DNA of 64,000 bases from a virus (taxonomy: Duplodnaviria; Heunggongvirae; Uroviricota; Caudoviricetes), in the IMG/VR virus record IMGVR_UViG_3300048496_000015; one strand, given 5' to 3'. A program made the translations under genes and the position numbers. Numbering within the stretch: position 1 is the stretch's first letter; every line of letters begins with the position of its first letter. A model generated the notes under the pieces. That model had not been told where the DNA came from and did not search any database. It was given only the letters and a program-made list of their open reading frames with translations. This document shows positions 2,428-45,700 of the stretch, piece after piece.

Positions 2428-3177
2428 TCACTGAGTGATGAACCTCTTATGAATAGACATCACGGTTTTCTGAGCTAGATGATAGTCTGAATTCTTAGGA
2501 AGGTCAGTTCCTTCCGCCAGCTGAAAAATCCGCTTGTCTTCATCCTCGATCCACTTGAGGAATTCATCGCGGCTGAACTTGCCGCGCTTAACGGCTTTGA
2601 TCTCTTCACGAATAGCTTTGTCAGGACGAACAACTAGTTCTCCCGTAAGGAAGAGCGTTTCTGCCATCTTCAAGAGACGGTAAGCATTGGCGGCGTGTTT
2701 TGTGTTGTAGCCATATTTCGCAATCAACAGCTTACCCTTAGCACCACTCTTTGCAGTGCTGTTACCCTTGATACGCTGGATATCACCCTTAGCAAAACCG
2801 CCGAGAGTCTTCCTAAGATGCTTACCCAGAAAGCTCTTCCGTATCGCCTTGAGCTCGTCCCAAGCCCAATGCGGGTGATCACAATCCGGCCAGCAACGGA
2901 CTTCAACGTCCTCTGGATAGAAAAGCATTTCCAATTGGAGCGGAGACCCTCTAAGGCAGAGCTTTACAAAATGTCGTAGCTCGTAACATTGTAAATCAAT
3001 CGGGGCCTCTTCGGTGTAGGCTTCAACGTTCTCGAGTCCGTAGATTTGGGACGGTTGAGCTAGGAACACCCCGCGATAATCAAGGTCGCTTTCGGGAGTC
3101 CGCGTGGCATATGCAGACGAACCCGCTTGAACCATGTAGATCTGTTGGGAATTCCAGGGACCGTCATTCTTGAACAT
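2428..3177 (-). CDS. Pol-beta superfamily nucleotidyltransferase (minimal NTase fold)
   Basis: GSSAYATRTPESDLDYRGVF = G[SG]-x9-13-DxD NTase motif; start moved to MFKNDGPW (ATGA overlap with upstream stop). Confidence 0.7.
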   Translation of the reverse strand: MFKNDGPWNSQQIYMVQAGSSAYATRTPESDLDYRGVFLAQPSQIYGLENVEAYTEEAPIDLQCYELRHFVKLCLRGSPLQLEMLFYPEDVEVRCWPDCDHPHWAWDELKAIRKSFLGKHLRKTLGGFAKGDIQRIKGNSTAKSGAKGKLLIAKYGYNTKHAANAYRLLKMAETLFLTGELVVRPDKAIREEIKAVKRGKFSRDEFLKWIEDEDKRIFQLAEGTDLPKNSDYHLAQKTVMSIHKRFITQ

Positions 3178-4258
3178 TCGTTGTTTCCTTCGGAGTTTCC
3201 TTCGGAATTTCAATCACCGTTTCTACAAAAGGCTGTTGTAGAAGCGCAATTACCTCATCGATCCTTTTTACATACAGGTCGTTCTTTTTGAAGATTTGAG
3301 CATGCTTAGCATCATATTCTTCGTTTGCTTCCTTAGCCTTTTTGCGCCAATAATAAGATTTATATTTCTTACCAGGAAGTCTAATCGGCTTATCGGTCTC
3401 CTCATGGTTTTCGAGGCGGTAATTGCGGTCAATAGTATAGGACGATTTCTTAGAGCGAAGAGAGGCTATCAACTGCTTTTTAACTCTCTTAACCATCTCG
3501 TCGTGGTTGACGATGGGGACTTCATACTCCCGAGAGTTCCTGGTCGTCCCCATAACCTTATGGGTCAGAGCCCTGATCTCATCACTGTTGGGTTGAAAAA
3601 CGGGAGTAACATGGACTCTCATCTTATTTGAAGAGTATTGTTCCGTCTCATCATCGATGACAGGACCTTTTATTGTGAAACAGAGCTTAATCTTGTCGGT
3701 TTCACTTACTCCTCTCTCTTCGCTTTTATTACGCACGATGGTGAGATTTACGTCTTCCCAGAATTTCTTAGAATACTCTGCTAAGATCTTGACAGTTGAT
3801 CCTTCATTTTTCTTCCTAGCAGCGTGGGTAGGACAAAAATGCCTCCGACCAATCTTCTCGAGACAGAGTTTATGTGTTGAAACGATGCACTCATCGTAAT
3901 CGCAAGATGCTACAGGATTGGACAACTTCTGGCCGCAGGCTCCACAGTCGGGAGCGTGATTAGGGCAATATGAATTATACCAACCCTGATCATCATACAT
4001 CTCAATGACACAGTCGGTATGTTGAGCGGTAGTATTAGGACAGTTTTCGCACTCACCCTCATCGTCTTCAGATACGGGTTTGTTGCAAACAGTGCACTTG
4101 AATTTTTGTGGAATGTGTGTGTTACAATACGTCCCATCCCTCGTCTCAGTAATACAAATTTTGTGTTGACGATTCTTCTGCGGACACTTCTGACACTCAT
4201 CGTCAGATGAATCTCGAGACTTAATGGGTTCTGCACAGACGAAACAGATGCTGTTCAT
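3164..4258 (-). CDS. multi-zinc-finger protein, member A of the 'ADYxKKxW' paralogue family
   Basis: many CxxC pairs in the N-terminal 150 aa; conserved ILAEYSKKFWEDV core; C-terminal ETPKETPKE repeat. Confidence 0.7.
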   Translation of the reverse strand: MNSICFVCAEPIKSRDSSDDECQKCPQKNRQHKICITETRDGTYCNTHIPQKFKCTVCNKPVSEDDEGECENCPNTTAQHTDCVIEMYDDQGWYNSYCPNHAPDCGACGQKLSNPVASCDYDECIVSTHKLCLEKIGRRHFCPTHAARKKNEGSTVKILAEYSKKFWEDVNLTIVRNKSEERGVSETDKIKLCFTIKGPVIDDETEQYSSNKMRVHVTPVFQPNSDEIRALTHKVMGTTRNSREYEVPIVNHDEMVKRVKKQLIASLRSKKSSYTIDRNYRLENHEETDKPIRLPGKKYKSYYWRKKAKEANEEYDAKHAQIFKKNDLYVKRIDEVIALLQQPFVETVIEIPKETPKETTNVQE

Positions 4259-4261
4259 TAT

Positions 4262-4654
4262 TCACCTACAAAAACGATCAAGTGCCTTCTTCAAAAAGGG
4301 TTTGAGATCCTTCTGGCACTTTTCACAGAGTTCAATACCCCATGTAGCAACGGCCACTACTTCAACTTCCTTAGAACCGCACCTTTCACAGGGCTTATGC
4401 CAGCCCTTCTCAATAGCGGAACGCATATCTATGTCAGCTCCACCATCGTCAGCTGGGAAATCAACACTTGAAGAGTAGCGCCAATCATGGATGTTGGCTT
4501 TGCGAAGCGCAGCTCCGAGAGCTGTAGACCCTCTTGTATCGGCTTTGAAGCTGAGCTTCTTACCATCTGCGAGGTCGCAGCCTACTTTTCCTCTAGTAAC
4601 GCTGATGAAGGGGCCGATTGCTGCTATGGTTTCATTTTTCTTCTGCCGGGTCAT
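4262..4654 (-). CDS. hypothetical protein with C-terminal CxxC-x-CxxC zinc ribbon
   Basis: 130-aa track ORF; ...CERCGSKEVEV...CEKCQKD. Confidence 0.55.
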   Translation of the reverse strand: MTRQKKNETIAAIGPFISVTRGKVGCDLADGKKLSFKADTRGSTALGAALRKANIHDWRYSSSVDFPADDGGADIDMRSAIEKGWHKPCERCGSKEVEVVAVATWGIELCEKCQKDLKPFLKKALDRFCR

Positions 4655-5243
4655 TCCCGAGTTCCTTCAATTTAGTTGTAACTGCATCCATCTTAGCCAT
4701 ATTAATTTGATGATGTTCGATCTTGTCCTCGATCTCTTTCTTGTAGCGGTTAACTGCAGCAGTAAATGCGGCCTTCTTCGCTGCTAGCGAAGGTAGCAAT
4801 TCTTTTCGTATTGCTCTAAGCGCTGATTTATGGTCGAAGACGGATGCTTCAAAAACCCGAGTCTTCTTTTTCGAGAGACCTTCAACCCTGTGTCTGATAG
4901 CAATAAGCTCTTTCTTATCACCTTCCGACTTAATGGGTTCGACAGTAACGTTCAATTGTTGATCGAATACGTTGACTGAGATTGAGTTGCCACTCATCGT
5001 TGCTTCGAGTCCAACGTCTTTCCAGAACTTAAGTGCATAGCCTTCTATGATGGCTGCAAGTTCCTTTGCTTCTTTGCGAGCTGCAAAGTGCTCGGGGCAG
5101 TAACGTTCTTCGTAGTAACCACTTCTTCCAGATCTTTTGGAACATTTTCTATGTAAGTCACGCTCACAATAACGGTGATTGCACGAAGTCTCTTCTCCCT
5201 TAGGGATAACAAGCTTACAATAGTCGCACGTGACAGTCTTCAT
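4632..5243 (-). CDS. zinc-finger protein, member B of the 'ADYxKKxW' family
   Basis: MKTVTCDYCK...; IIEGYALKFWKDVGL...IRHRVEGL conserved core. Confidence 0.65.
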   Translation of the reverse strand: MKTVTCDYCKLVIPKGEETSCNHRYCERDLHRKCSKRSGRSGYYEERYCPEHFAARKEAKELAAIIEGYALKFWKDVGLEATMSGNSISVNVFDQQLNVTVEPIKSEGDKKELIAIRHRVEGLSKKKTRVFEASVFDHKSALRAIRKELLPSLAAKKAAFTAAVNRYKKEIEDKIEHHQINMAKMDAVTTKLKELGNDPAEEK

Positions 5244-5872
5244 TATTCCGTCTCCTCATGCTTTTCCTTCTTCTTCGTGGAGCGATAGTCATCGTCCAAA
5301 GGAGGAAGGGTACCACCCAAATTAGCCATTACCTGCTCAATGATGACATCCAGATCCGCAACCTTTTCATCCATCTTCTTCTTCTGGATGGTGATCGAGG
5401 ATTTGGTCGAACGAAGTGACCTGACAATGGCCCCTTGAAGCTGCTTTACCACATCATCATGTGAATGAATGTTAGCAGCGAATTTTCGTTCTTTCTCGGC
5501 CAGACCTTCAACCACTAGAGTGAGCTTCGTTAGATTCTCCTCGTTCTTATCATATTCAGGCTTAATATTAATGTCAAGCGGGCCTACCTTAGCCGAGACG
5601 TAGCCTTCATCGTTGACTGCCCCTGTGAAGCCCACGTCATCCCACATCTTTTTGGCATAATCAGCGATAATTTGACCGTTCCTACCTCGGATAGCGTGAT
5701 TGCTACAATACTTCCTTTTGAAGATGGTCTCAAGACATTCTTTGTGGAAATTTTGGCCTCGTGGGCACTCGCAACAGTTGAGTTCGGTTCCACCATAACC
5801 GTAGTAAGATCCGTTCTCGATGTCAGCGCCGATTTGCTTCTGGCAAGTATCGCAAAAGAGTCGTAAAGGCAT
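5243..5872 (-). CDS. zinc-finger protein, member C of the 'ADYxKKxW' family
   Basis: MPLRLFCDTCQK...; IIADYAKKMWDDVGF...LVVEGL core; ATGA overlap with member B. Confidence 0.65.
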   Translation of the reverse strand: MPLRLFCDTCQKQIGADIENGSYYGYGGTELNCCECPRGQNFHKECLETIFKRKYCSNHAIRGRNGQIIADYAKKMWDDVGFTGAVNDEGYVSAKVGPLDINIKPEYDKNEENLTKLTLVVEGLAEKERKFAANIHSHDDVVKQLQGAIVRSLRSTKSSITIQKKKMDEKVADLDVIIEQVMANLGGTLPPLDDDYRSTKKKEKHEETE

Positions 5873-18043: not shown

Positions 18044-18150
18044 TGACTCTCAACTCAAAATCCCCGCCACAACCACCATAGTTGTGACGACGAGGGCAAT
18101 CACCATCAAGATTCTTGCATCCCATGGTCGCTCAGTTTGACACTTCATTA

Positions 18151-18915
18151 TAAAATCCCAGCGCGCCGGTTCCGTTCAGACTGCTGAACCATCTTACGGA
18201 TGTCCGAAGACATCTTATCGGCGTATTCCAGCGGAGTCTTGGCCTTAGCCTTGATATCCAAAATCTCGTTCACGATCTTCTGGCCGTGCTTGTTGGAGGG
18301 GTCCCTGTGACCTGCGATGAAGTCGATCAGGATGTAGCCGCCCCAATGCTAAAGATCGTTCAGATGATCGATCGCCAAGATGATCTTAGAAGGTGTCCTA
18401 GCCTCAAACAACTGGACGACGGCCTTTGCGATGACAGGATATTTGTCCTTGTCGAATGTCGAGAGGTTGTCTGCGAACTTCTTGGTGTTCGCTTCCTCAG
18501 CCTTAGACTTACCCGATTCCGTATCTCCGCGCATCGACTTGACCATTCCCATCATGTCAAAGCCCATGCCCATTCGAGACATTTTGGCGGAGTCCTTCTT
18601 GACATGCTCCGCCAACTCATCCTTCATAGTCTTGATCATGTCATCGATGGTCATCGCATTCTTACCATCGGGATGCCAATGGGCAAAACGCGTACGGAGA
18701 GCTTCCATGTAGGTCTTCCTCAAGACCTCAAGGGTCGTCTCGCAGATGGCCTTCTCATCCGGTTCCAATAGATCGAGATTGAGAGTCGCGATCCCATAAA
18801 AGTTGTAGAGATCTTCGGGGGTAACTGCCTTGAACTTGCTAGAGATGTCCATCTCTTTCTCCTTAATGTCCGTGATTGAAACCGTACTTAATCTTAATAT
18901 CCTTCTTACCCACAC
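18151..18915 (-). CDS. paralogue of 26079-26753 interrupted by an in-frame TAG at 18349-18351 (readthrough candidate or pseudogene)
   Basis: FYG..., MSRMGMGFDMMGM and IDHLNDL align with the paralogue; homology (KAKTPLEYADKMSSDIRK) continues ~65 codons past the TAG to a TAA at 18148. Confidence 0.5.
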
Positions 18916-19147
18916 GGGCGAAGGTCACAATCTCTTCGTGGGAGCCACAACACCCTGAATCAGCAACCGTTTGGTAGTAGCGCTCTTCTGCCTCGTTCCC
19001 AACGCGGGCCACTCGCCAAGCGTCAACGTAATCAAATACTTGATTTTTCTGGATGGTATCGTGAAAACTCCAAAACCGTCTCTCCCACTTCCTAAATGCA
19101 TCGATCAGATCCTCCGGCCAATCTCCAGGGAGTTCGACCAAAATCAT
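18863..19147 (-). CDS. hypothetical protein
   Basis: 94-aa track ORF. Confidence 0.5.
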   Translation of the reverse strand: MILVELPGDWPEDLIDAFRKWERRFWSFHDTIQKNQVFDYVDAWRVARVGNEAEERYYQTVADSGCCGSHEEIVTFARVGKKDIKIKYGFNHGH

Positions 19148-19347: not shown

Positions 19348-19550
19348 TCTTCCACCTTGTGCTTTTCACACACGAATTTGGGATGGTCGGCTAGCTTCTT
19401 GGGCTTAGTTGCCCATCCACCGACCTCATCAGGATGGGGCTCGCTGTGATAGCGGCTTGTACATTCAGCAATTGCTATCTCACCACAAGTCTTCCCATTG
19501 AGGAGAGCTTGACCACAGTACTTCCATCGTTCATAAGTCGACACATTCAC
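19344..19550 (-). CDS. hypothetical Cys-containing protein
   Basis: 68-aa track ORF. Confidence 0.45.
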   Translation of the reverse strand: MNVSTYERWKYCGQALLNGKTCGEIAIAECTSRYHSEPHPDEVGGWATKPKKLADHPKFVCEKHKVEE

Positions 19551-19942
19551 TCCTGAGGAGTAAGAGATCCGTTTTTGAGGAACTTGGATTTCATCCGGGA
19601 CACATTCTCTTTGATCTGTTCACCCAGAACCTCGGAGATGTTAGGAACCGCCAGACTGATCTCTCGCATCCCTCTACCGCGCAGATGATAGTGGAGTTTT
19701 TCTCCCTTGACCCGAATATCTCCAAGAATATGGGTATTGGGAGAAGGGTATCCAGCGTCTGCAGTGGCTCCTCTGACCTTAAGACTCACCGCAAAAGGAT
19801 CGATACCAGCGTGTTTGAAAGCATTTGCGATGATATCCGACAATAAAGCCAGTCCTACCGGGGAATAGTAGGAAAAATTTCCATAATAACTATTCCCCTG
19901 CTTATAGTGAACATAGAAGTCGTCATTAGCAAGTGGTTTCAC
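19547..19942 (-). CDS. hypothetical protein, paralogue of 30031-30423
   Basis: AFKHAGIDPFAV, KGEKLHYHLRGRG and NVSRMKSKFLKNG are shared with the paralogue. Confidence 0.55.
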   Translation of the reverse strand: MKPLANDDFYVHYKQGNSYYGNFSYYSPVGLALLSDIIANAFKHAGIDPFAVSLKVRGATADAGYPSPNTHILGDIRVKGEKLHYHLRGRGMREISLAVPNISEVLGEQIKENVSRMKSKFLKNGSLTPQE

Positions 19943-19944
19943 TA

Positions 19945-20784
19945 TTACTCCTTGTTCAGAAGTCGTCGGCCAATTGCGACAGGCAGACTAGGAAATTCAT
20001 CTTTCTCGTCACAACACTGACGATGGAGAGTGTAGCCAGGCTTGGATTTGAGTAACTTTCCACACCTCATGCACTCCAAGTCCTTGAACTCGGGGAGGAA
20101 TTTATCAGCGAATTCTCCCAACTCGGAGAGAGGAAGCTTCTGTGCCAGAAAACTCACCATCTTCGACCCAACCTGCTGGCGGAGTCTGGTCCCCGGCGCG
20201 ATCCATTTCTTCTCTGCCAAAACCTTGAGGCGATCAGCGGGGAATCGCTCGATGATAGCTTTCATCTGCGCCCAATCCCAGCTGGAAGCATACTCAGAAA
20301 ACTTAACGTTCGCCAGAGCAACTTCAAGTACTTCAATATCAAGGTATTTAATACTACTTGCCTCAAGCATATAGAGCTTGCTGGGGGCAAGCGTTAGCAA
20401 ATTGGACTTTCCGGCCTCTACCAGACGAGGTGCGATGGTCTTGTAAGCGTAGTTGGCGTTCCAGTTGGTGGATCCCTCAATAGTCTTCATAACTTCTTCA
20501 GCTTGAGGGCTGGTGACATCAACGGCTTTCGCCACATCGTTGATATGGCGATCATCGGTCAAGAAATACTTGCACATTTCGGGCTGACTTTCAAGAATCT
20601 TGCCCATGTTCCGCTGAGCATATTCCATCACAGCGTCATCGAAGAACTTGAAGTCGAAATTCGGGTCGGCCAACAGCCGAGCGTACTTGCTACTCTCGCG
20701 ATCGAGTGCCATCTCTTCCTCCATTCTACAAACAGTGAATTTTAACAGCCTTGATTGCTTTCTCGAAGAAATCAGGGTCAGCAA
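19945..20784 (-). CDS. hypothetical protein (279 aa)
   Basis: long track ORF. Confidence 0.6.
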   Translation of the reverse strand: MLTLISSRKQSRLLKFTVCRMEEEMALDRESSKYARLLADPNFDFKFFDDAVMEYAQRNMGKILESQPEMCKYFLTDDRHINDVAKAVDVTSPQAEEVMKTIEGSTNWNANYAYKTIAPRLVEAGKSNLLTLAPSKLYMLEASSIKYLDIEVLEVALANVKFSEYASSWDWAQMKAIIERFPADRLKVLAEKKWIAPGTRLRQQVGSKMVSFLAQKLPLSELGEFADKFLPEFKDLECMRCGKLLKSKPGYTLHRQCCDEKDEFPSLPVAIGRRLLNKE

Positions 20785-21016
20785 GATTCATTTGTCGAAA
20801 TTCTGGCCGCATCACCCAACCACTCTTTGTTGGGGGGCCATAACAAGTTACCTTAACAACATCGCCCTTTCCAGGTTGGGGAAATTGGAAAATAATGCCG
20901 CCTTTTACATCCTTCAGAGAGTGGACAGCGACTTTATACTTCTGATCATAGGATCCTTGGATTCCCATATCTAGCTGGGACCACAACTCTTGGGCGGCTA
21001 GGCGGCTTAAGTCCAT
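20726..21016 (-). CDS. small protein of the DPxFF family (tandem with 21024-21311)
   Basis: ...MNLADPDFFEKAIKAV. Confidence 0.55.
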   Translation of the reverse strand: MDLSRLAAQELWSQLDMGIQGSYDQKYKVAVHSLKDVKGGIIFQFPQPGKGDVVKVTCYGPPTKSGWVMRPEFRQMNLADPDFFEKAIKAVKIHCL

Positions 21017-21023
21017 CTGTGTG

Positions 21024-21311
21024 TTACGTTAGAAACTTGTTAATCATATCCATGGCTTTTTCAAAAAACCTGGGATCGGAAATATGGAGGTTGACGGGCT
21101 CCTTCTTGCGCGAAGTCACAATGACTGTTCCAGGTTTGTACTTCCAGTGACGGAAGTAGAGCACCATCTCATCAGGACCGTGATTCACATGTCGTTTAGA
21201 CATGAGACTCAACTTCCTTCCATCAAGGGTCAAGGTCGCTCCACAACCCTTAGGGATCATGCGCCACAGAGCGTCAGCCGCTATGTGGATCAAATCAGGC
21301 TCTTTTGTCAT
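21024..21311 (-). CDS. small protein of the DPxFF family
   Basis: ...LHISDPRFFEKAMDMI. Confidence 0.55.
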   Translation of the reverse strand: MTKEPDLIHIAADALWRMIPKGCGATLTLDGRKLSLMSKRHVNHGPDEMVLYFRHWKYKPGTVIVTSRKKEPVNLHISDPRFFEKAMDMINKFLT

Positions 21312-21378: not shown

Positions 21379-22617
21379 TTACAAGCTGATCAGGATCTTA
21401 TCCCCGAAAGGAGGCTTGGCGTCCTCGGTGAGAAGCCACACAACCGGCGTCGGTGGAACCTCAGGAGGCCAACGTCCAACCTGCCCGTCAGTGAGAACCA
21501 CAAGGATGTTGTTGAACAAGTGGTTTTCCTTGAGATAGGCGAACAGGTGAACAACATTTGTTCCACAACCACCCTTGGCCGGGATCTTTCTCCAGTCGCC
21601 CCGGTGATATCTCTTTGCGGGCATCTGGATCTTAGCGTCCCAAAGCACGAGGGAGATCTTGAAACGGTGGCTTGCAGCTTCCACTTCCGTGAAGAGTTGT
21701 TCGAGCATTTTGACGTTGCTGGCCACCGAACTGGAGACGTCGACCGCGAGGAGGAGCGGCACGGACGCGTGGTTGGAACGTCCAGCAAAGCCGAAGAGGT
21801 CAATGCGGCGGTTGCGCCGAGCGAAGGTCTTACGCTTGCCGCCCAGCTGACGACCGCAGAACTGACGGAACAAATACTTCCAGTTGACCTTCGGATCTTG
21901 AAGCTGCTCAATAGCATCTTTCAGGTGGCCTGGAGCCGAACCAGCTTTCTTGCTGGCCTGCTCAACCATGTCCTTGACGATCTGGCGGGTCTCTTCCTCA
22001 CCGATTTCCGACTCTTCCCAGATGTCGTGATTGTCAACCGTCGTGCCCGAAATGACCTTCTGTCCAGGCTTCGGTTTCTTCTTGCCGCTGGCGAGATCAC
22101 CACCCGGCATGTCGATGAAGATTTTCTTCTGGTTCTTGTCGAGCCAGTCGTAGACTTCCTCGTAGGTCGAGTTATTCTCGGGCGAGAGATCGCCCTCGGG
22201 GAAGTAAAGGGGCGGAGCTTCCGTCGTCTTGTTTCCGCCTTCATCGAAGACCGGAATCATCGGCAGGTTTTCGATGTTGGGCTTACTCTCGGGGCCATTC
22301 ACGCACATATCCGCAGCCGTGTTGGCCATTTCGTGGTCTCGCGCACCATGACGAGTGATGTGCAGGCGAACGATATGCTCAATTTCGTGCTGAATTACCG
22401 CCATCAGAGCGTCAATCTCTCCAATGGCATCAACAAAAGGTCCTGACCATCGACACTCGACCCGGCCTCCGGCAATCATACGGACGCCCATGGTCCCAAC
22501 CTTGTCGTCGCGCTTCCACTCCATGAGGGATGCCATCGTGCCATACCAAACGTGCATGGTCACCAGACGGCATCGCGCCTTCATGATGAGGTCTTCAGCG
22601 CTGTCGTACATACCCAT
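21379..22617 (-). CDS. vWA-domain protein with N-terminal HExxH metallopeptidase-like module; partner of the MoxR ATPase
   Basis: HEIEHIV motif; MIDAS-like LLLAVDVSSSV; GC-rich. Confidence 0.8.
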   Translation of the reverse strand: MGMYDSAEDLIMKARCRLVTMHVWYGTMASLMEWKRDDKVGTMGVRMIAGGRVECRWSGPFVDAIGEIDALMAVIQHEIEHIVRLHITRHGARDHEMANTAADMCVNGPESKPNIENLPMIPVFDEGGNKTTEAPPLYFPEGDLSPENNSTYEEVYDWLDKNQKKIFIDMPGGDLASGKKKPKPGQKVISGTTVDNHDIWEESEIGEEETRQIVKDMVEQASKKAGSAPGHLKDAIEQLQDPKVNWKYLFRQFCGRQLGGKRKTFARRNRRIDLFGFAGRSNHASVPLLLAVDVSSSVASNVKMLEQLFTEVEAASHRFKISLVLWDAKIQMPAKRYHRGDWRKIPAKGGCGTNVVHLFAYLKENHLFNNILVVLTDGQVGRWPPEVPPTPVVWLLTEDAKPPFGDKILISL

Positions 22618-23394: not shown

Positions 23395-24753
23395 TTAGCT
23401 CCCGTAAGAGACCTTCGACATGAGCTTCTGCAGCTCGGGGCGAGCGCTGATGGCAGCGATCCAGGAATTGGTCTTATCGGGCTTGTACCGAGCGGCCATC
23501 TTGGCGAGATGGACGTTGGAAAGCACCGCACCACCGAGGTTGACCGTTTCCTTCTCGACCAGAGTGCGGCCGAGCATGACCGCGAGGTCGCGCTCTGCGC
23601 GCTTGGCCACCAACTCCATGAAGTCCAGCGTGTTGGTGATCAGCTTCTCCCGATCCTTACCCTTCACACCCTTGGTGTCCGCGAAGCGGTCCTTCGCGTG
23701 GGAGGCCACGCCCCAGACCAGACCGACCATCTGGTTCCGGTTGAAGCCCTTGAGCTTCGCGTCGATGGCCTTGAGACCCTTGTCCAGCACGTCACCCGGG
23801 GTGACTTCGACGCTGAACCGCTCGAACGCGTTGGCGAGATCGCGACCCACGATCCCGGCGAGGACTTCGCGGATTGCTTCCTTCGGATAGTTGCGGCGCT
23901 CGACCTCTTGAGCCACGCGGCCTACGAATTCCCAAGAGCGCGGGGACGACATGACAGTGAAACCGAGGTCACCGTCGATCTTGCCCATCAAGTTGTTCTT
24001 GTCGTAGGTCACGAACTGCAGGACCTTGTCGCCGACAGGACCCTTGAGCTTCTGAGTCATGTAATCCGACCAGTCGGCCACATAACCCTCGTCCACCGAG
24101 ACGACCACGTGGCAGAACCTGTCGAGGAACGCCGGGTCGTTAAAGGTGTTGACGTTGTAACCGGTCTGGTAGTTTCCAGCGCAGGTCACACTCCAGCCCG
24201 AAGGCATGGTGTACCGACCGAGCTGACGGTCCAGAACCAGCTGGAAGCAGGCCTGAAGCACGTCGTCGTCGGCGCGGTTGAGCTCGTCCAGGAAGAGGAT
24301 TCCTTCGTGGAGGATGATGACGATTCCGTCATCCTTATCCGTCTTGGGCTGGTTCTTGTGACCATTCGGACAAACCGTGGGGATCTCCTTGGTGAGGGCA
24401 TAACTGCCGTTCTCACCGAAGGTTCCGTGCCAACGGCCTCGAGGCCCGTTCTTCACAGGCGCGTCGGCGCATTCCAAACAGAGGAACTCTCCGTGCGGGA
24501 GATCCTCAGGCGGGCAGTAAATCGTGAGGCCGTTCTGTCGGTCGGGGAGACCGCGCAGATCGGACGATTCGATCTGACTGGCACGGAAATCCACAAACCC
24601 CCAAGGCCGCTTCGTGCCCGAATGCTTCGGGGCCTCTTGACACAGCTGCCTTACGAGGGAGCTCTTACCCAAGCCTCGGTGGCCCCACATGAACATGGCC
24701 ACACCGGAATTGCGACAGAGCCGAGTCGCATGCTTGGTCATCGTAACGTTCAT
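23395..24753 (-). CDS. MoxR-family AAA+ ATPase with a zinc-ribbon insertion
   Basis: Walker A GHRGLGKSSL; Walker B LFLDELNRA; CPPEDLPHGEFLCLEC insertion. Confidence 0.85.
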   Translation of the reverse strand: MNVTMTKHATRLCRNSGVAMFMWGHRGLGKSSLVRQLCQEAPKHSGTKRPWGFVDFRASQIESSDLRGLPDRQNGLTIYCPPEDLPHGEFLCLECADAPVKNGPRGRWHGTFGENGSYALTKEIPTVCPNGHKNQPKTDKDDGIVIILHEGILFLDELNRADDDVLQACFQLVLDRQLGRYTMPSGWSVTCAGNYQTGYNVNTFNDPAFLDRFCHVVVSVDEGYVADWSDYMTQKLKGPVGDKVLQFVTYDKNNLMGKIDGDLGFTVMSSPRSWEFVGRVAQEVERRNYPKEAIREVLAGIVGRDLANAFERFSVEVTPGDVLDKGLKAIDAKLKGFNRNQMVGLVWGVASHAKDRFADTKGVKGKDREKLITNTLDFMELVAKRAERDLAVMLGRTLVEKETVNLGGAVLSNVHLAKMAARYKPDKTNSWIAAISARPELQKLMSKVSYGS

Positions 24754-25010: not shown

Positions 25011-26079
25011 GTTGAACTTTCACACGCAGATATTCATCCTCTTTATCGACTTCAGTCAATTCTGAGCCTTTAAAGATATGAAGACCATCTCTGGTCGAGT
25101 ACCGCTCCGGTTCAGTTTTGTACATGCTGAGATCGAATGGCCTCTTTCTCACTTTCTCCTGCAAGGCTGGTAGCTTCTGCCAGTTAACATAACCTTGGCC
25201 CCCATAGGGGTTAGCTTCCACCGCTCCTTTGACTTTCGACCAGTCGATGATGTAATAATTCTTGACTTTTTTTACCTCATCATCACCAATGAGGACGTAA
25301 TCACGAAGACCAGTTGGGTTCCTGTGACTCCACCCATAGGAAAAGACTAGAATTGGTTTGTAGCTTGGGTTGGCCAGAACCGCCGATTCAATCTTTTCCG
25401 ACTGAGACACGAATCGATAGATCTCATCCCCCACATCCTCGAAGTAAATCATTGAATGCTTCGCATACTCATCGATACCACTAAGGTTGAAGGGACGTTT
25501 CTTGGCGCGGCCTAAGATGAGGGAGGAATGCTGCTTGAGGATGCCGAGAACTCGCGCGGCTTTATTCAGACTGCCTAACTCTCGCTTGAGAGAGTCCCAG
25601 GTCGGATTAGGTAGAAACTTGTCATCGAAGTAATACGGTACCGAGAGGCCGTCAAAACGAACCTTCACATACCTACCGCGTCGGTCCTTATGCACGGAGG
25701 GACCTACAGACAATTTCTCTGTCTTGTAGGTCTTGTCATCCTGGGTTAGTTCGATATACTCCGCATTCCCGCGAAGCCAGTGCAGGGTCTCGGTGAGAGA
25801 GAGATTGATCACCATCTCATGAACAAGATGACCGTCCTGGGGTCTAAGATCCATTCCAATCTTGAGCGGACCAGATATGAGTTCAGGTCCCGAGTCTGCA
25901 ATATAGACGCTATATTGGAAGTTGTAGAATGCATCGGAAATTGATTTCGACGCTTCGAAGTCATGAAGCGGCGTAGTAGCCCTTACGAGCACCGGCTTCG
26001 GATTCGAATCCTTGACCGGATGGGGACCATATACCTTGAATAGACCCCGCTCACCTCGGAGGTTAGAGAATTGTTCCAT
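24988..26079 (-). CDS. hypothetical protein (363 aa)
   Basis: long track ORF. Confidence 0.6.
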   Translation of the reverse strand: MEQFSNLRGERGLFKVYGPHPVKDSNPKPVLVRATTPLHDFEASKSISDAFYNFQYSVYIADSGPELISGPLKIGMDLRPQDGHLVHEMVINLSLTETLHWLRGNAEYIELTQDDKTYKTEKLSVGPSVHKDRRGRYVKVRFDGLSVPYYFDDKFLPNPTWDSLKRELGSLNKAARVLGILKQHSSLILGRAKKRPFNLSGIDEYAKHSMIYFEDVGDEIYRFVSQSEKIESAVLANPSYKPILVFSYGWSHRNPTGLRDYVLIGDDEVKKVKNYYIIDWSKVKGAVEANPYGGQGYVNWQKLPALQEKVRKRPFDLSMYKTEPERYSTRDGLHIFKGSELTEVDKEDEYLRVKVQRACKAKL

Positions 26080-26753
26080 TAGATGATCCTATACTGCTTA
26101 AGGAAGTTGCGTACATCACTGGACATCTTACCGGCAAACTCACGAGGAGTCTTGGCCTTGAACTTCTCATTGAGAACTGCCTGAACGGCGTTGTGGTTGC
26201 TGCCACCACCACCGCGAGTACCGGTCAGATCGAAAATGACGTGGCAACAGTTATGTTGCAGATCATTCAAATGGTCGATAGACTCAATAATGGCCTTGTT
26301 GGACTTCGCCTTCTCAATGGCTAGGAAGGCTTCGCTGATCACAGCCCAAGGCTCGCCACCAAACGCGGACATTGACTTACCCTGCTTGGAGCGGAAAGCA
26401 TCAGCTGCTCCCGCCATCTTGTCCTTGGGTTTATTATGTTCTTTGTGCTCGGACTTGATCAGCTCCATCATGTTGAAGCCGAGCCCCGTTCGCGACATCG
26501 AAGCAGCCTGAGCCTTGATCTGCTCATCCATCTTGCCCTTCATGTCGCGAAGCATGGCTTCGATACTGGCACCGGCTACATCTAGACTCATGTAACCAGC
26601 TTCCTCTATGATGCGCTTCTTGAGCGTCTTAACGTAAGCCTGTTGGATTTCAGTCAGATAGAAACTGAAGAGATTCTTACCCTCCTCATCTAGGGTTTTC
26701 TCGTCAATGACGGAGAGGCCGTAGAAGTCGTATACATCACTTACTTTCAGCAT
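26079..26753 (-). CDS. hypothetical protein, intact paralogue of 18151-18915
   Basis: start trimmed to MLKVSDVYDFYG; has Q (CAA) where the paralogue has TAG. Confidence 0.6.
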   Translation of the reverse strand: MLKVSDVYDFYGLSVIDEKTLDEEGKNLFSFYLTEIQQAYVKTLKKRIIEEAGYMSLDVAGASIEAMLRDMKGKMDEQIKAQAASMSRTGLGFNMMELIKSEHKEHNKPKDKMAGAADAFRSKQGKSMSAFGGEPWAVISEAFLAIEKAKSNKAIIESIDHLNDLQHNCCHVIFDLTGTRGGGGSNHNAVQAVLNEKFKAKTPREFAGKMSSDVRNFLKQYRII

Positions 26754-27923: not shown

Positions 27924-28432
27924 TCCTCCATATTGAGTCTAATTTGACTCACGTAGGTTAGAACAGCAGAATCCGCCCGACAATGATCCGGAATTTTACT
28001 CAGTAAGGTTTCAGTGTTTGAACGATAACCTTTTGTGAATTTCACGGGCTTAAGCTTGAAATCTCGCGTATTATCACATCGATCAGCGAGTTTAAGTAAG
28101 ACGCCATCTCGCGATAGCCGAGCAAAACGCGCGAAGTATTCAGCCTCTTTTTCAGCCTTAGGGAGAGACTTAACCTTAGTCACTCCCATGACCAGCTCAG
28201 TCATGTCGCTCCCGAAGTAGAGTCGGATTGTACCGGAAGTAACATCGGTGTCTTCAATCACATCATGAAGTACACCTGCAGTCGCCAACTTAATATTGCC
28301 GGTACGAGCAAAGAGATCATCCGCAACCCGTAAAGGGTGGAGGATATAAGGTTCGTCAACGAACTTGCGACGTTGTCCATCGTGGGCCTTGGTCGCAAGG
28401 AGGATTGCTCTATTGTAGTTCTGAAGCCACAT
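27920..28432 (-). CDS. HD-domain (p)ppGpp/alarmone hydrolase (RelA/SpoT hydrolase-type, SAH-like)
   Basis: ATKAHDGQRRK...PYILHPLRVA...AGVLHDVIEDT...LLKLADRCDNTRD. Confidence 0.8.
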   Translation of the reverse strand: MWLQNYNRAILLATKAHDGQRRKFVDEPYILHPLRVADDLFARTGNIKLATAGVLHDVIEDTDVTSGTIRLYFGSDMTELVMGVTKVKSLPKAEKEAEYFARFARLSRDGVLLKLADRCDNTRDFKLKPVKFTKGYRSNTETLLSKIPDHCRADSAVLTYVSQIRLNMEE

Positions 28433-28958
28433 GTTTTTCTACCTTATTAAGAAGGGCTCGGATTTTCTTATGATCCTCATTGTGATAGGAGATCTTACGC
28501 TCCGTTGCCTCTATATTGTCCTTAATCATCCTAACCAACAATTCTTCGAGCTTCTCGCCCACCTTCTCGTGGTTATGTAAGGGGATAAAGATTTCGAGAT
28601 GTCCCCTGCCAAACGTTAGACCTCCCTTAAGGGCGTTGTGGCGGGCCGCATATATCTGATCTAGGTGACCAATAGTCACACAAATTCTTCGATGATCTTG
28701 ATCATTGGAGAATAGCTCATGTGTCAGAACTCGTGCGCCGATCTTATCGAGCCTGCGCTCACGCCAGACTTTCTGGATATAGTCAGCCACAACCCGTTTT
28801 TGTCCTTCCGAGTTGTAATGTTTCGTACAGAGTAAGTCTCCCGAAAGCTTCTTCAAGCAACGACTATGATAGTGACCATCAGCACCGCACTTCTCACAGA
28901 TGGCAAACCGGTTGTTATAGATTAGACCTTTACATTTATCGCAGAAAGTCTTAGTCAT
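28410..28958 (-). CDS. zinc-finger protein, member D of the 'ADYxKKxW' family
   Basis: start trimmed to MTKTFCDKCKG by analogy with members A-C; VVADYIQKVW...ICVTIGHL core. Confidence 0.6.
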   Translation of the reverse strand: MTKTFCDKCKGLIYNNRFAICEKCGADGHYHSRCLKKLSGDLLCTKHYNSEGQKRVVADYIQKVWRERRLDKIGARVLTHELFSNDQDHRRICVTIGHLDQIYAARHNALKGGLTFGRGHLEIFIPLHNHEKVGEKLEELLVRMIKDNIEATERKISYHNEDHKKIRALLNKVEKHVASELQ

Positions 28959-29205
28959 CGCTCCATCTTCCACTCGCGTGCGGTTCTCCCTTACCATAAC
29001 CACGGGGATCGAGACGGTTGATTTCCTTAAATTGGCCCTCATCCATGATCTCGATCTCGCCTGCCGTCTTGTGACCGTAAGCCATCCGTCCTTTTTTCAT
29101 CGGGACGTCTCCGTCCGCGATTACACATGGAACGCAGGTTCTCGCGTTAGGGAGGGCTTCCAGGCGCTCAGCGGAGATTAGCTTACCGCAACGTTCACAA
29201 CTCAT
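28951..29205 (-). CDS. TraR/DksA-family C4 zinc-finger protein
   Basis: CERCGKLISAERLEALPNARTCVPC. Confidence 0.8.
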   Translation of the reverse strand: MSCERCGKLISAERLEALPNARTCVPCVIADGDVPMKKGRMAYGHKTAGEIEIMDEGQFKEINRLDPRGYGKGEPHASGRWSDD

Positions 29206-29867: not shown

Positions 29868-30031
29868 GATTCTCTAATACAGCCTTCACACTGGCAGCGG
29901 ACGCTAGAAAGATCACCGCAGATTTCATAACCCTGCTCAGCTACCCAATGTTCACAGCGACCGCACTCCCATGCGGGAGTGCCCTGCTTCTCTGCCTTGA
30001 ACATCTCGGACCCACAGTACTTACAAAGCAT
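29864..30031 (-). CDS. small zinc-ribbon protein (55 aa)
   Basis: MLCKYCGSEMF...WECGRCEHW...; TAATG upstream, ATGA downstream. Confidence 0.4.
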   Translation of the reverse strand: MLCKYCGSEMFKAEKQGTPAWECGRCEHWVAEQGYEICGDLSSVRCQCEGCIRES

Positions 30032-30423
30032 TATTCGGCTCCCTTCTTCTCTTTCTTAAGATACTTCGACTTCATGTTCTTCGTGCGCTCAACAATCAGC
30101 GCCGCGATTCGATCAATGAGATCAGGAACAGCTAGAGGAATGACCTCAAATTCCTGATGCCCGTACCCGTACTTCCTTCCCCTCGCCTGGAACTTGAGTT
30201 TCTCTCCTTCCACATGGACTTCGCTGATAAGAGAACTCATGGGAGAGGGCCACCGGAAAGATAATCTACTCCCTCTATAAGTGACATACCCTGTGCTGAC
30301 CGCAACCGCAACCTCGTTTGGATCAATACCAGCCTTCTTAAAGGCTTCTAGGAAGGTCTCACTGAGAATCATCATCAGTAACAGAATACCATTTCTTCTG
30401 AACGTAGAAGTCACCAACATCAA
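30031..30423 (-). CDS. hypothetical protein, paralogue of 19547-19942
   Basis: AFKKAGIDPNEV, EGEKLKFQARGRKYG and NMKSKYLKKEKKG are shared. Confidence 0.55.
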   Translation of the reverse strand: MMLVTSTFRRNGILLLMMILSETFLEAFKKAGIDPNEVAVAVSTGYVTYRGSRLSFRWPSPMSSLISEVHVEGEKLKFQARGRKYGYGHQEFEVIPLAVPDLIDRIAALIVERTKNMKSKYLKKEKKGAE

Positions 30424-30432
30424 CTGAGGATC

Positions 30433-30909
30433 TCATTTAACACCCTTCGTCGCGGCCCACTTCCGTATCAGCTTTTGCGTTTTCTTCCGTTCTCTCTTTG
30501 CCTTATCGGTTTCAACTAGTTCCCGCAACTTTTTGTCATAGACATCTTTCTTCTTGAGACTCTTAACAAGCTTGGTGTCAGTCTCGAACAGCGTTCTTAA
30601 AAGACCAAGAAGGTCAGATGTCGGTTCAGCAATGTTCATGTAATAAACCCATCCATCTTTATTCGTTGACAGGTCTTGCTTGCGCGAGAAGATGACCTCA
30701 ACCTCATTTTGAACGAACACGTGGATTGCAGGGATAAAGTATCCTCCCCGAATCTGGAGATGAGGTTGGATATAAGGTGTCGAACCGCCGTACAAGGACA
30801 CCTTAAATCCCTCGTTAATGAGCCACACCTTTAGTTGGCCTAGCGTGGCAACTTTCTCTTGATGGGTCATTTCGCAAACTGACGCTTGGCCAGCTCCTCC
30901 TTGTACCAC
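30433..30909 (-). CDS. hypothetical protein
   Basis: 158-aa track ORF. Confidence 0.55.
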   Translation of the reverse strand: MVQGGAGQASVCEMTHQEKVATLGQLKVWLINEGFKVSLYGGSTPYIQPHLQIRGGYFIPAIHVFVQNEVEVIFSRKQDLSTNKDGWVYYMNIAEPTSDLLGLLRTLFETDTKLVKSLKKKDVYDKKLRELVETDKAKRERKKTQKLIRKWAATKGVK

Positions 30910-34048: not shown

Positions 34049-34245
34049 TTTACCTCAGGTAAAACCTCAGGACCCCAATCTAGATCATAGTCTAGATTCC
34101 AATGCCAATCGGAATAATGACCTTGGGGCCGTTGGCACCGGATAGGCTTATTGTCTGGAGTCAATGCAGACCAACAAGCATTTTCACAAAGAACCTCTTT
34201 ATAGGCAGCATTTGGGGCGAAGATCTTAAATTTTTCTGAACTCAT
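34045..34245 (-). CDS. small protein, NFKI-family variant (KFKIFAP)
   Basis: MSSEKFKIFAPNAAYKEV... Confidence 0.45.
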   Translation of the reverse strand: MSSEKFKIFAPNAAYKEVLCENACWSALTPDNKPIRCQRPQGHYSDWHWNLDYDLDWGPEVLPEVK

Positions 34246-34556
34246 TCACCCGCCGCTTCTACCGTAGCAGACATAGAACCTGCACAACGTGGGATCCTTG
34301 GGTCTCGCCCGTAAGCGTGGACCTTATCTCTCTTGAATTCAGCATATTCAAGAGCGCCCGAATATACAATCACCTTTCCGGTCGCATCGACCTCAACTGC
34401 CATCCTGAATGCCTTCTCCTTGGAGTGACCGAAGACCACTCCAAGCATTTCGATCACATACTCGTATGTGTGATCATCATCATTCCACAGGATAACGTTG
34501 TAAGGAGGCTGTGTCTTGACATCCTCCTTGACTTCATCTTTTACTTCTGTCGACAT
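34242..34556 (-). CDS. clpS: ClpS, Clp protease N-degron adaptor (copy 1)
   Basis: YNVILWNDDDHTYEYVIEMLGVVFGHSKEKAFRMAVEVDATGKVIVYSGALEYAEFKRDKV. Confidence 0.85.
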   Translation of the reverse strand: MSTEVKDEVKEDVKTQPPYNVILWNDDDHTYEYVIEMLGVVFGHSKEKAFRMAVEVDATGKVIVYSGALEYAEFKRDKVHAYGRDPRIPRCAGSMSATVEAAGE

Positions 34557-34783
34557 TACTTCTTCTCCCGTGTGGTACGTTCGGTGAATTGAGACATCTT
34601 ATCGAGACTTCCGAGGTCATCAAATTTTGTGTCAAGTAATTTGACATCATTAATCTCGGCTGCACCAAATTCTCGCAGATAGTCGAGGAAATCTTCCTCA
34701 CGCTCATCACCGAGAGGTACGGCATAAGTGATGCAATAAACAAGTGTCTTGCCGAGTTTCTCACAGGCCTTTTTGCGGTCCAT
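34556..34783 (-). CDS. hypothetical protein
   Basis: 75-aa track ORF. Confidence 0.45.
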   Translation of the reverse strand: MDRKKACEKLGKTLVYCITYAVPLGDEREEDFLDYLREFGAAEINDVKLLDTKFDDLGSLDKMSQFTERTTREKK

Positions 34784-34983
34784 CAGAGTCCTTTCATCTC
34801 TTCAAGGATGTCTTTCCAGTCTTTTCCAGTTCGAGTAGCTATATCCTTAATACGGAGGAGACCTTCTTTAAGAGAACAATCATAACAAAGAATATGACTT
34901 ATTGGATGCAATCGTGGTTTCGCCTTGCAAGTCAAGCAAGGCACTGCAGCTATCGGCGCAGTCATTTTGAAGTTCCCGAGCAT
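34783..34983 (-). CDS. small Cys-containing protein, NFKI-family variant (NFKMTAP)
   Basis: MLGNFKMTAPIAAVPCLTCK... Confidence 0.45.
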   Translation of the reverse strand: MLGNFKMTAPIAAVPCLTCKAKPRLHPISHILCYDCSLKEGLLRIKDIATRTGKDWKDILEEMKGL

Positions 34984-35142
34984 CTACCTCACCAATCCCA
35001 CGTACACGAGATCCCTCGACTTCGACTTCTTCGATCCATCCACGCTCGTCTCCGTCACGGTGACTTGACGGCCCTTTCGGGTCTTCATCTTCCTCCGGAC
35101 GCCGTGCTTCGCGTCGGTCCTGGAGTAGAAACCGTGAACCAT
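34984..35142 (-). CDS. small basic protein (52 aa)
   Basis: MVHGFYSRTDAKHGVRRKMKTRKGRQV...; fills the gap between two genes. Confidence 0.3.
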   Translation of the reverse strand: MVHGFYSRTDAKHGVRRKMKTRKGRQVTVTETSVDGSKKSKSRDLVYVGLVR

Positions 35143-35143
35143 C

Positions 35144-35488
35144 TTACTGTTGCTGCGCCGCATCGTTTTCCTCCTTGTAAGCTTCCGTATCCAACTGGTT
35201 TAAGCGAGCATTATTTCTCTCTACCCAGAGATTGAATTCTGGTCTTTCTTGAAGGGTAGTGAGAATCTCCATTGTCTTGGGCTCATCAAGCTGCCCTGGC
35301 AGAACATAGAGCTTCCAGATCCTTTTAAAACGTTTGAACCCCTCCAGATCTCTCACCGCATCATGCTCATATGCGGCGAGTATCTTCATCCGATCGATGC
35401 CGAGGATCTTGAAGTTGCTCCTACTCTCCATTCTTCTCCGCCTTGAGCTCCGAGTCGGCCCTGCTCCATCCATCAATTTCGGTTCCAT
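35144..35488 (-). CDS. hypothetical protein, NFKI family, tandem paralogue of 35573-35806
   Basis: ...SNFKILGIDRMKILAAYEHDAVRDLEGFKRF. Confidence 0.55.
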   Translation of the reverse strand: MEPKLMDGAGPTRSSRRRRMESRSNFKILGIDRMKILAAYEHDAVRDLEGFKRFKRIWKLYVLPGQLDEPKTMEILTTLQERPEFNLWVERNNARLNQLDTEAYKEENDAAQQQ

Positions 35489-36227: not shown

Positions 36228-36527
36228 TTAATCCTCCGGCTCAATAGAGAAGGTCAGAGGGAATTTATTCATTCGGGCTATCGCGTGAGCCTTCTCTACA
36301 TGGAATTCAGCTCGTTCGAGAGGTTCCACCACAACCAGGGCTACTTGCTTCGAGTGAGCCTCGAGCATGATCCGCGTAGATTCCGCGAGATCCTTATTGA
36401 AGACTTTGGATAGAACCAGAACTACGAAATCCATCGGAGTCTTCGGATCATCGTGGATGAGTACCCGATACATCTTGATGTATCCGGTACGCGTTTTAGT
36501 CTCCTGAATGGTATCCGTATCAGACAC
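36228..36527 (-). CDS. clpS: ClpS-like adaptor (copy 2)
   Basis: YRVLIHDDPKTPMDFVVLVLSKVFNKDLAESTRIMLEAHSKQVALVVVEPLERAEFHVEKA. Confidence 0.8.
   Translation of the reverse strand: MSDTDTIQETKTRTGYIKMYRVLIHDDPKTPMDFVVLVLSKVFNKDLAESTRIMLEAHSKQVALVVVEPLERAEFHVEKAHAIARMNKFPLTFSIEPED

Positions 36528-45623: not shown

Positions 45624-45700
<77 letters not shown>

Follow-up and report, generated by a model that had tools for sequence, protein, structure and literature searches.

A single C-to-T transition in gene A of the analysed jumbo phage converts the codon of a conserved glutamine, CAG (Gln168), into an in-frame TAG, and on balance this is probably a real, very young nonsense (amber) allele, private to the phage population of one sample. 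The change is a single base, absent from all other assemblies of the phage and from all relatives, and TAG is an ordinary terminator in the phage genome. A very recent nonsense mutation had been among the options of the original prediction, and it fits the finding that five independent assemblies of the same phage are identical to the present sequence across gene A except for C in place of T. The whole stretch of 64,000 bases that was analysed is referred to here as the window.

Gene model of gene A

The coordinates of gene A, based on sequence and translation, are given together with those of the other features in Table 1. Gene A has a truncated product of 167 aa (P0001) and a full-length form of 234 aa (P0017). 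The gene had been described beforehand as carrying an in-frame TAG followed by an open, homologous frame of about 65 codons reaching a TAA at 18148, and this description stood, with 66 codons counted and homology to the paralogue at 26079-26753. The start proposed with it, GTG 18915, had to be abandoned, since this codon sits inside the upstream gene 18863-19147, while ATG 18852 (MDI...) is the start in the orthologues and in the gene calls of the sister assemblies. The products expected at 188 and 255 aa were thus corrected to 167 and 234 aa.

Table 1. Features of the window discussed in the text
Feature	Position	Strand	Description
Gene A	18148..18852	minus	234 codons; TAG as codon 168, then TAA stop
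Gene A start ATG	18852	minus	AAGGAG 8 nt upstream
In-frame TAG	18349..18351	minus	18351 is T on minus, A on plus; CAG (Gln168) in sister assemblies
Post-TAG segment	18148..18348	minus	66 sense codons and TAA
Gene A terminal TAA	18150-18148	minus	closes the frame 66 codons past the TAG (18351-18349)
Paralogue B	26079..26753	minus	224 aa, intact; CAA (Gln) at the codon aligned with the TAG
2-bp deletion	~30373-30377, near 30375, in gene 30031-30436	minus	GGG run shortened; ACTGGGATG to ACTGATG
SNV	3562		His/Tyr; in another assembly (L025)
SNV	19285		synonymous (Glu); common to two assemblies (L029, L031)
SNV	31636		Arg/His; in another assembly (L035)
tRNA-Met(CAT)	45624-45700		sole tRNA in the window; ARAGORN
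Adjacent paralogues	20726-21016, 21024-21311		~95 aa each, DP.FFEKA C-terminus in common
ClpS-domain paralogues	34242-34556, 36228-36527		two genes
Three- to four-member family	3164-5872		further copy at 28410-29042

Comparison with sister assemblies

Sister assemblies were located using the exact products of genes neighbouring gene A in the window. The same phage had been assembled repeatedly in JGI datasets 3300060479 (Ga0589155_0000001, 384,188 bp), 3300048059, 3300048060, 3300048497, and 3300048498, and it was also present in the Logan assemblies SRR35523735, SRR35513551, and SRR35513966. Gene A was covered by five of these, namely JGI 3300060479 (the 384,188-bp contig), 3300048060, and 3300048498, and Logan SRR35523735 and SRR35513551, and it was called intact at 234 aa in 5/5. 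Alignment of the 705 nt of gene A against the five sister sequences (L026-L030) revealed one mismatch, at nt 502, where the window has T and the sisters have C; the C gives CAG and the T gives TAG. The C corresponding to window position 18351 was found at seven loci in five assemblies. In agreement with this, the cluster listing counted five contigs for the 234-aa form and a single one, 124,844 bp long, for the 167-aa form. It had been stated in the original prediction that CAG or CAA at this position in relatives would refute it, and CAG was found in 5/5 assemblies of the same phage, which goes against recoding.

The 384-kb contig could be tiled over 63,558 of the 64,000 bases of the window. 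Only two differences were observed over these 63,558 bases, the TAG base itself and a 2-bp contraction near 30375. The window comes from a ~384-kb jumbo phage, mapping in reversed orientation to ~19.8-83.3 kb of Ga0589155_0000001, and its ~124 genes share one strand. Several JGI and Logan samples yielded this phage at ~100% identity.

Conservation of the A/B protein family and the question of readthrough

BLASTP comparison of the gene A read-through product with paralogue B aligned 217 residues across the TAG with 32% identity (E=2e-37), and the 66 post-TAG residues alone matched the C-terminus of paralogue B with E=2e-9. Thus, the paralogy of the two genes and the glutamine codon opposite the TAG, both noted in advance, were confirmed. 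A search for orthologues among 5.8 billion proteins matched the truncated 167-aa product and 15 orthologue clusters of 233-242 aa, which showed 51-62% identity and covered 95-100% of the read-through query. The column of codon 168 contained Gln in 13/15 orthologue clusters and in paralogue B, Ser in 2/15, and a stop in 0/15. Two orthologue DNAs carried CAG at this codon, and a metagenome scan yielded 17 further, more distant loci with CAG or CAA in 17/17 and a stop in 0/17.

Codon 168 falls in IDHLNDLQH, the best-conserved motif of the A/B family, and the segment beyond the TAG is the most conserved third of the family (HWGGYILIDFxAGHRDPS...KMSSDIRK). All invariant columns of this segment are kept in gene A (H169, D177, G181, R183, K201, A204, P207, M214, and R219). 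The ratio of post-TAG to pre-TAG identity to the orthologues was 1.15 for gene A, and the same ratio was seen among intact orthologues. The frame downstream of the TAG therefore shows no decay, being open with its conserved residues retained, and the two differences from the 384-kb contig in 63,558 bp indicate that there was no time for such decay.

An open and conserved downstream frame would also be expected of programmed amber readthrough, in which gene A would produce a 167-aa isoform together with a C-terminally extended 234-aa isoform. Programmed readthrough is known from the A1 protein of Q-beta (UGA) and from the MuLV gag-pol and TMV replicase proteins (UAG), where a stop is followed by an open, functional in-frame extension as in gene A. 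The base after the TAG (+4) is C, and a C at this position is a weak termination context in bacteria. In those systems, however, the stop is conserved in relatives and both isoforms are needed, while the stop of gene A is seen neither in any relative nor in other samples of this phage: it occurs in 0/5 sister assemblies, 0/15 orthologue clusters, and 0/17 metagenomic loci. A programmed site would be conserved, and this TAG is not. Moreover, the folding energy calculated for the RNA that follows the TAG does not differ from that of shuffled sequences (MFE z = -0.78), and the intact gene found everywhere else fully explains the downstream conservation. Programmed readthrough had been offered as an option for this site, but with near and distant relatives all lacking a stop at codon 168 it is now very improbable.

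The A and B proteins are members of an all-alpha family that is widespread, lacks annotation, and carries the motif IDHLNDLQH; two subfamilies could be distinguished, A-type (HWGGYILIDFxAGHRDPS) and B-type (HNSFHLLIDLQTGRML). A 'PdxS' label attached to one orthologue in one source looks spurious. The gene neighbourhood is kept in relatives, and between A and B it includes a DUF2201 metallopeptidase/VWA-like protein (21379-22617) and an AAA ATPase (23395-24753).

Gene A would encode a conserved, predicted all-alpha phage protein without assigned function. The AlphaFold2 model was all-alpha at moderate confidence (mean pLDDT 65, pTM 0.62), and a Foldseek search with it against the PDB gave no match below E=0.25, with TM-scores of at most 0.24. 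Searches of Pfam and PHROGs gave no credible match for the family, the SWIRM hit at E=0.03 failing the cutoff. A Dps-like identity was considered from a profile search of PDB sequences, but the best E value of 0.008 over ~65 residues was too weak and the identity was not accepted. No relatives were detected among deposited phages by 5-kb megablast and tblastn of the 234-aa protein, nor among IMG/VR viral contigs by single-protein, alignment, or degenerate-DNA-pattern scans around the codon.

TAG usage and tRNA content

A gene model based on simple codon usage gave ~124 minus-strand genes, which terminated at TGA in 54 cases, at TAA in 53, and at TAG in 18, gene A included. For the other 17 TAG-terminated genes the in-frame extension had a median of 7.5 codons, and most of these genes abut or overlap the next gene. 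The longer extensions, at 34984, 39099, and 60652, are next genes that share the frame by chance. The TAG at 34984 was considered as a second readthrough candidate and rejected: 66 open codons follow it, but GGTGAGG and an ATG stand directly after the stop. The region concerned (34783-35163, minus strand) holds a 59-aa ORF ending in this TAG and then the 66 open codons, which contain a separately called 60-aa gene; from its layout it looks like two coupled small genes sharing a frame, and its sequence is identical in all assemblies.

ARAGORN analysis agreed with the earlier statement that the only tRNA in the window has the anticodon CAT. The flanking 10 kb on each side of the window contained no tRNA of any kind, and thus no CUA tRNA was present in ~84 kb of the ~384-kb phage.

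These counts bear on whether TAG is read as Gln throughout the genome (genetic code 15), as it is in some gut and huge phages. Recoded phages of this kind exist, and phAss-1 is reported to carry TAG in 41 ORFs (PMC10607447). The alignment of the TAG with Gln is shared with code-15 phages, in which in-frame TAG codons occur where homologues have Gln. However, dozens of genes in such phages contain in-frame TAG, and a suppressor tRNA is usually encoded as well, whereas in the window an in-frame TAG was found in 1 of ~124 genes and in one assembly, and no suppressor tRNA was seen in the window and 10 kb to each side. The window phage also differs in using TAG as the working terminator of 17 other genes, with short extensions tightly packed against the next gene, and its sister assemblies have CAG at the site. 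Genome-wide recoding had already been regarded as unlikely, and with 17 other genes ending at TAG and a single gene interrupted it is now hardly conceivable.

A more restricted mechanism would be suppression of a real amber allele: a tRNA(CUA), with its gene in the remaining ~300 kb of the phage or in the host, would insert Gln and restore the wild-type protein. Some jumbo phages have CUA suppressor tRNAs without known targets, such as XacN1 (PMC5852040), and the window phage, itself a jumbo phage of ~384 kb, has an amber codon potentially readable by a tRNA of this type. The position of the TAG exactly at a Gln codon and the scanning of only ~84 kb of the ~384 kb leave room for this mechanism. 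XacN1 has a CUA tRNA, whereas the 84 kb examined here has none, and megablast and tblastn revealed no sequence relationship between the window phage and XacN1 or any other deposited phage. Furthermore, a strong suppressor would extend the 17 other TAG-ended genes, and CAG in five sister assemblies indicates that the design of the phage needs no TAG at codon 168. Suppression by a phage or host tRNA, likewise among the initial options, is therefore improbable in view of the 17 normal TAG terminations and the lack of a CUA tRNA in 84 kb. Even taken together, the functional readings (suppressor tRNA, programmed readthrough, and recoding) are unlikely.

The second private lesion and the possibility of a consensus error

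The 2-bp deletion causes a frameshift after codon 20 in the 135-aa gene 30031-30436, which is a paralogue of 19547-19942. Both assemblies spanning this position, the 384-kb contig (L032) and Logan SRR35513966 (L033), have the gene intact. Since these are the only two differences from the 384-kb contig in 63.6 kb, the TAG and the deletion are lesions private to the contig of the window, and on sequence comparison they are either very recent mutations or consensus errors.

An error of sequencing, polishing or assembly, by which the phage of the sample would have CAG and the T of the contig would be a wrong consensus base, is quite possible, though less likely than a real allele. Apart from its two private differences, the window shows 100% identity to the 384-kb contig; both differences are gene-breaking, as unfiltered errors would give, and the TAG form is confined to one contig. 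The 2-bp loss in a G run is moreover typical of homopolymer-type error. The disruptive nature of both differences and the single occurrence of the TAG form also count against a real allele. On the other side, real transition SNVs could be found among other assemblies. The SNVs at 3562, 19285, and 31636 are all transitions, and they show low-level real population variation. In addition, both private lesions lie in genes with a paralogue in the window. Such genes number 12 of the 124 and hold ~10% of the bases, so that random placement would put both lesions in them ~1% of the time; this comparison is post-hoc with n=2, but the placement fits tolerated mutations better than random errors. Gene conversion or read cross-talk from paralogue B was ruled out as a source of the TAG by the CAA in B, and for the same reason mis-mapped paralogue reads cannot yield it.

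Probable consequences of the putative amber allele

With a real, young amber allele as the preferred explanation, a single C-to-T transition would have turned the conserved Gln168 codon into TAG in a gene that is otherwise intact. Translation would then stop at codon 168 and give a 167-aa product without the best-conserved C-terminal third, and the allele is therefore probably null or strongly hypomorphic. Full-length protein, if any, would arise solely via basal near-cognate misreading of the UAG, with no recoding mechanism involved. An accessory role and the presence of a paralogue may make the loss tolerable; paralogue B, only 32% identical, may or may not compensate. Selection of the knockout, for example as an escape from a host defence that senses the gene A protein, is a further but unlikely possibility.

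The am alleles of T4 and lambda are the classical amber (nonsense) mutants of phages. As in gene A, a single base changes a sense codon to UAG while the downstream frame stays intact, and in the absence of a suppressor a truncated product results. The classical mutants were selected in the laboratory, whereas the TAG of gene A comes from a metagenome assembly and is known from one contig. The site behaves like a classical amber mutation, and the finding is an ordinary one.

The region also contains further sets of related genes (Table 1), and these sequences suggest that gene duplication is enlarging this part of the phage.

Implications

For annotation, the 167-aa call (P0001) should be treated as a truncated form of the 234-aa protein (P0017), and the site is best marked as potentially a pseudogene or an assembly error rather than as recoding. 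Where a stop is followed by conserved homology, near-identical genomes should be compared before readthrough is proposed. If a suppressor tRNA did act on this codon, it would buffer amber mutations, and gene A would provide a first natural target for suppressor tRNAs of this orphan class, known from jumbo phages including XacN1. As a one-base lesion in one assembly, the TAG matters little for the biology of the phage. If the allele were confirmed at high frequency, it would only mean that a conserved accessory gene is dispensable under the conditions of that sample.
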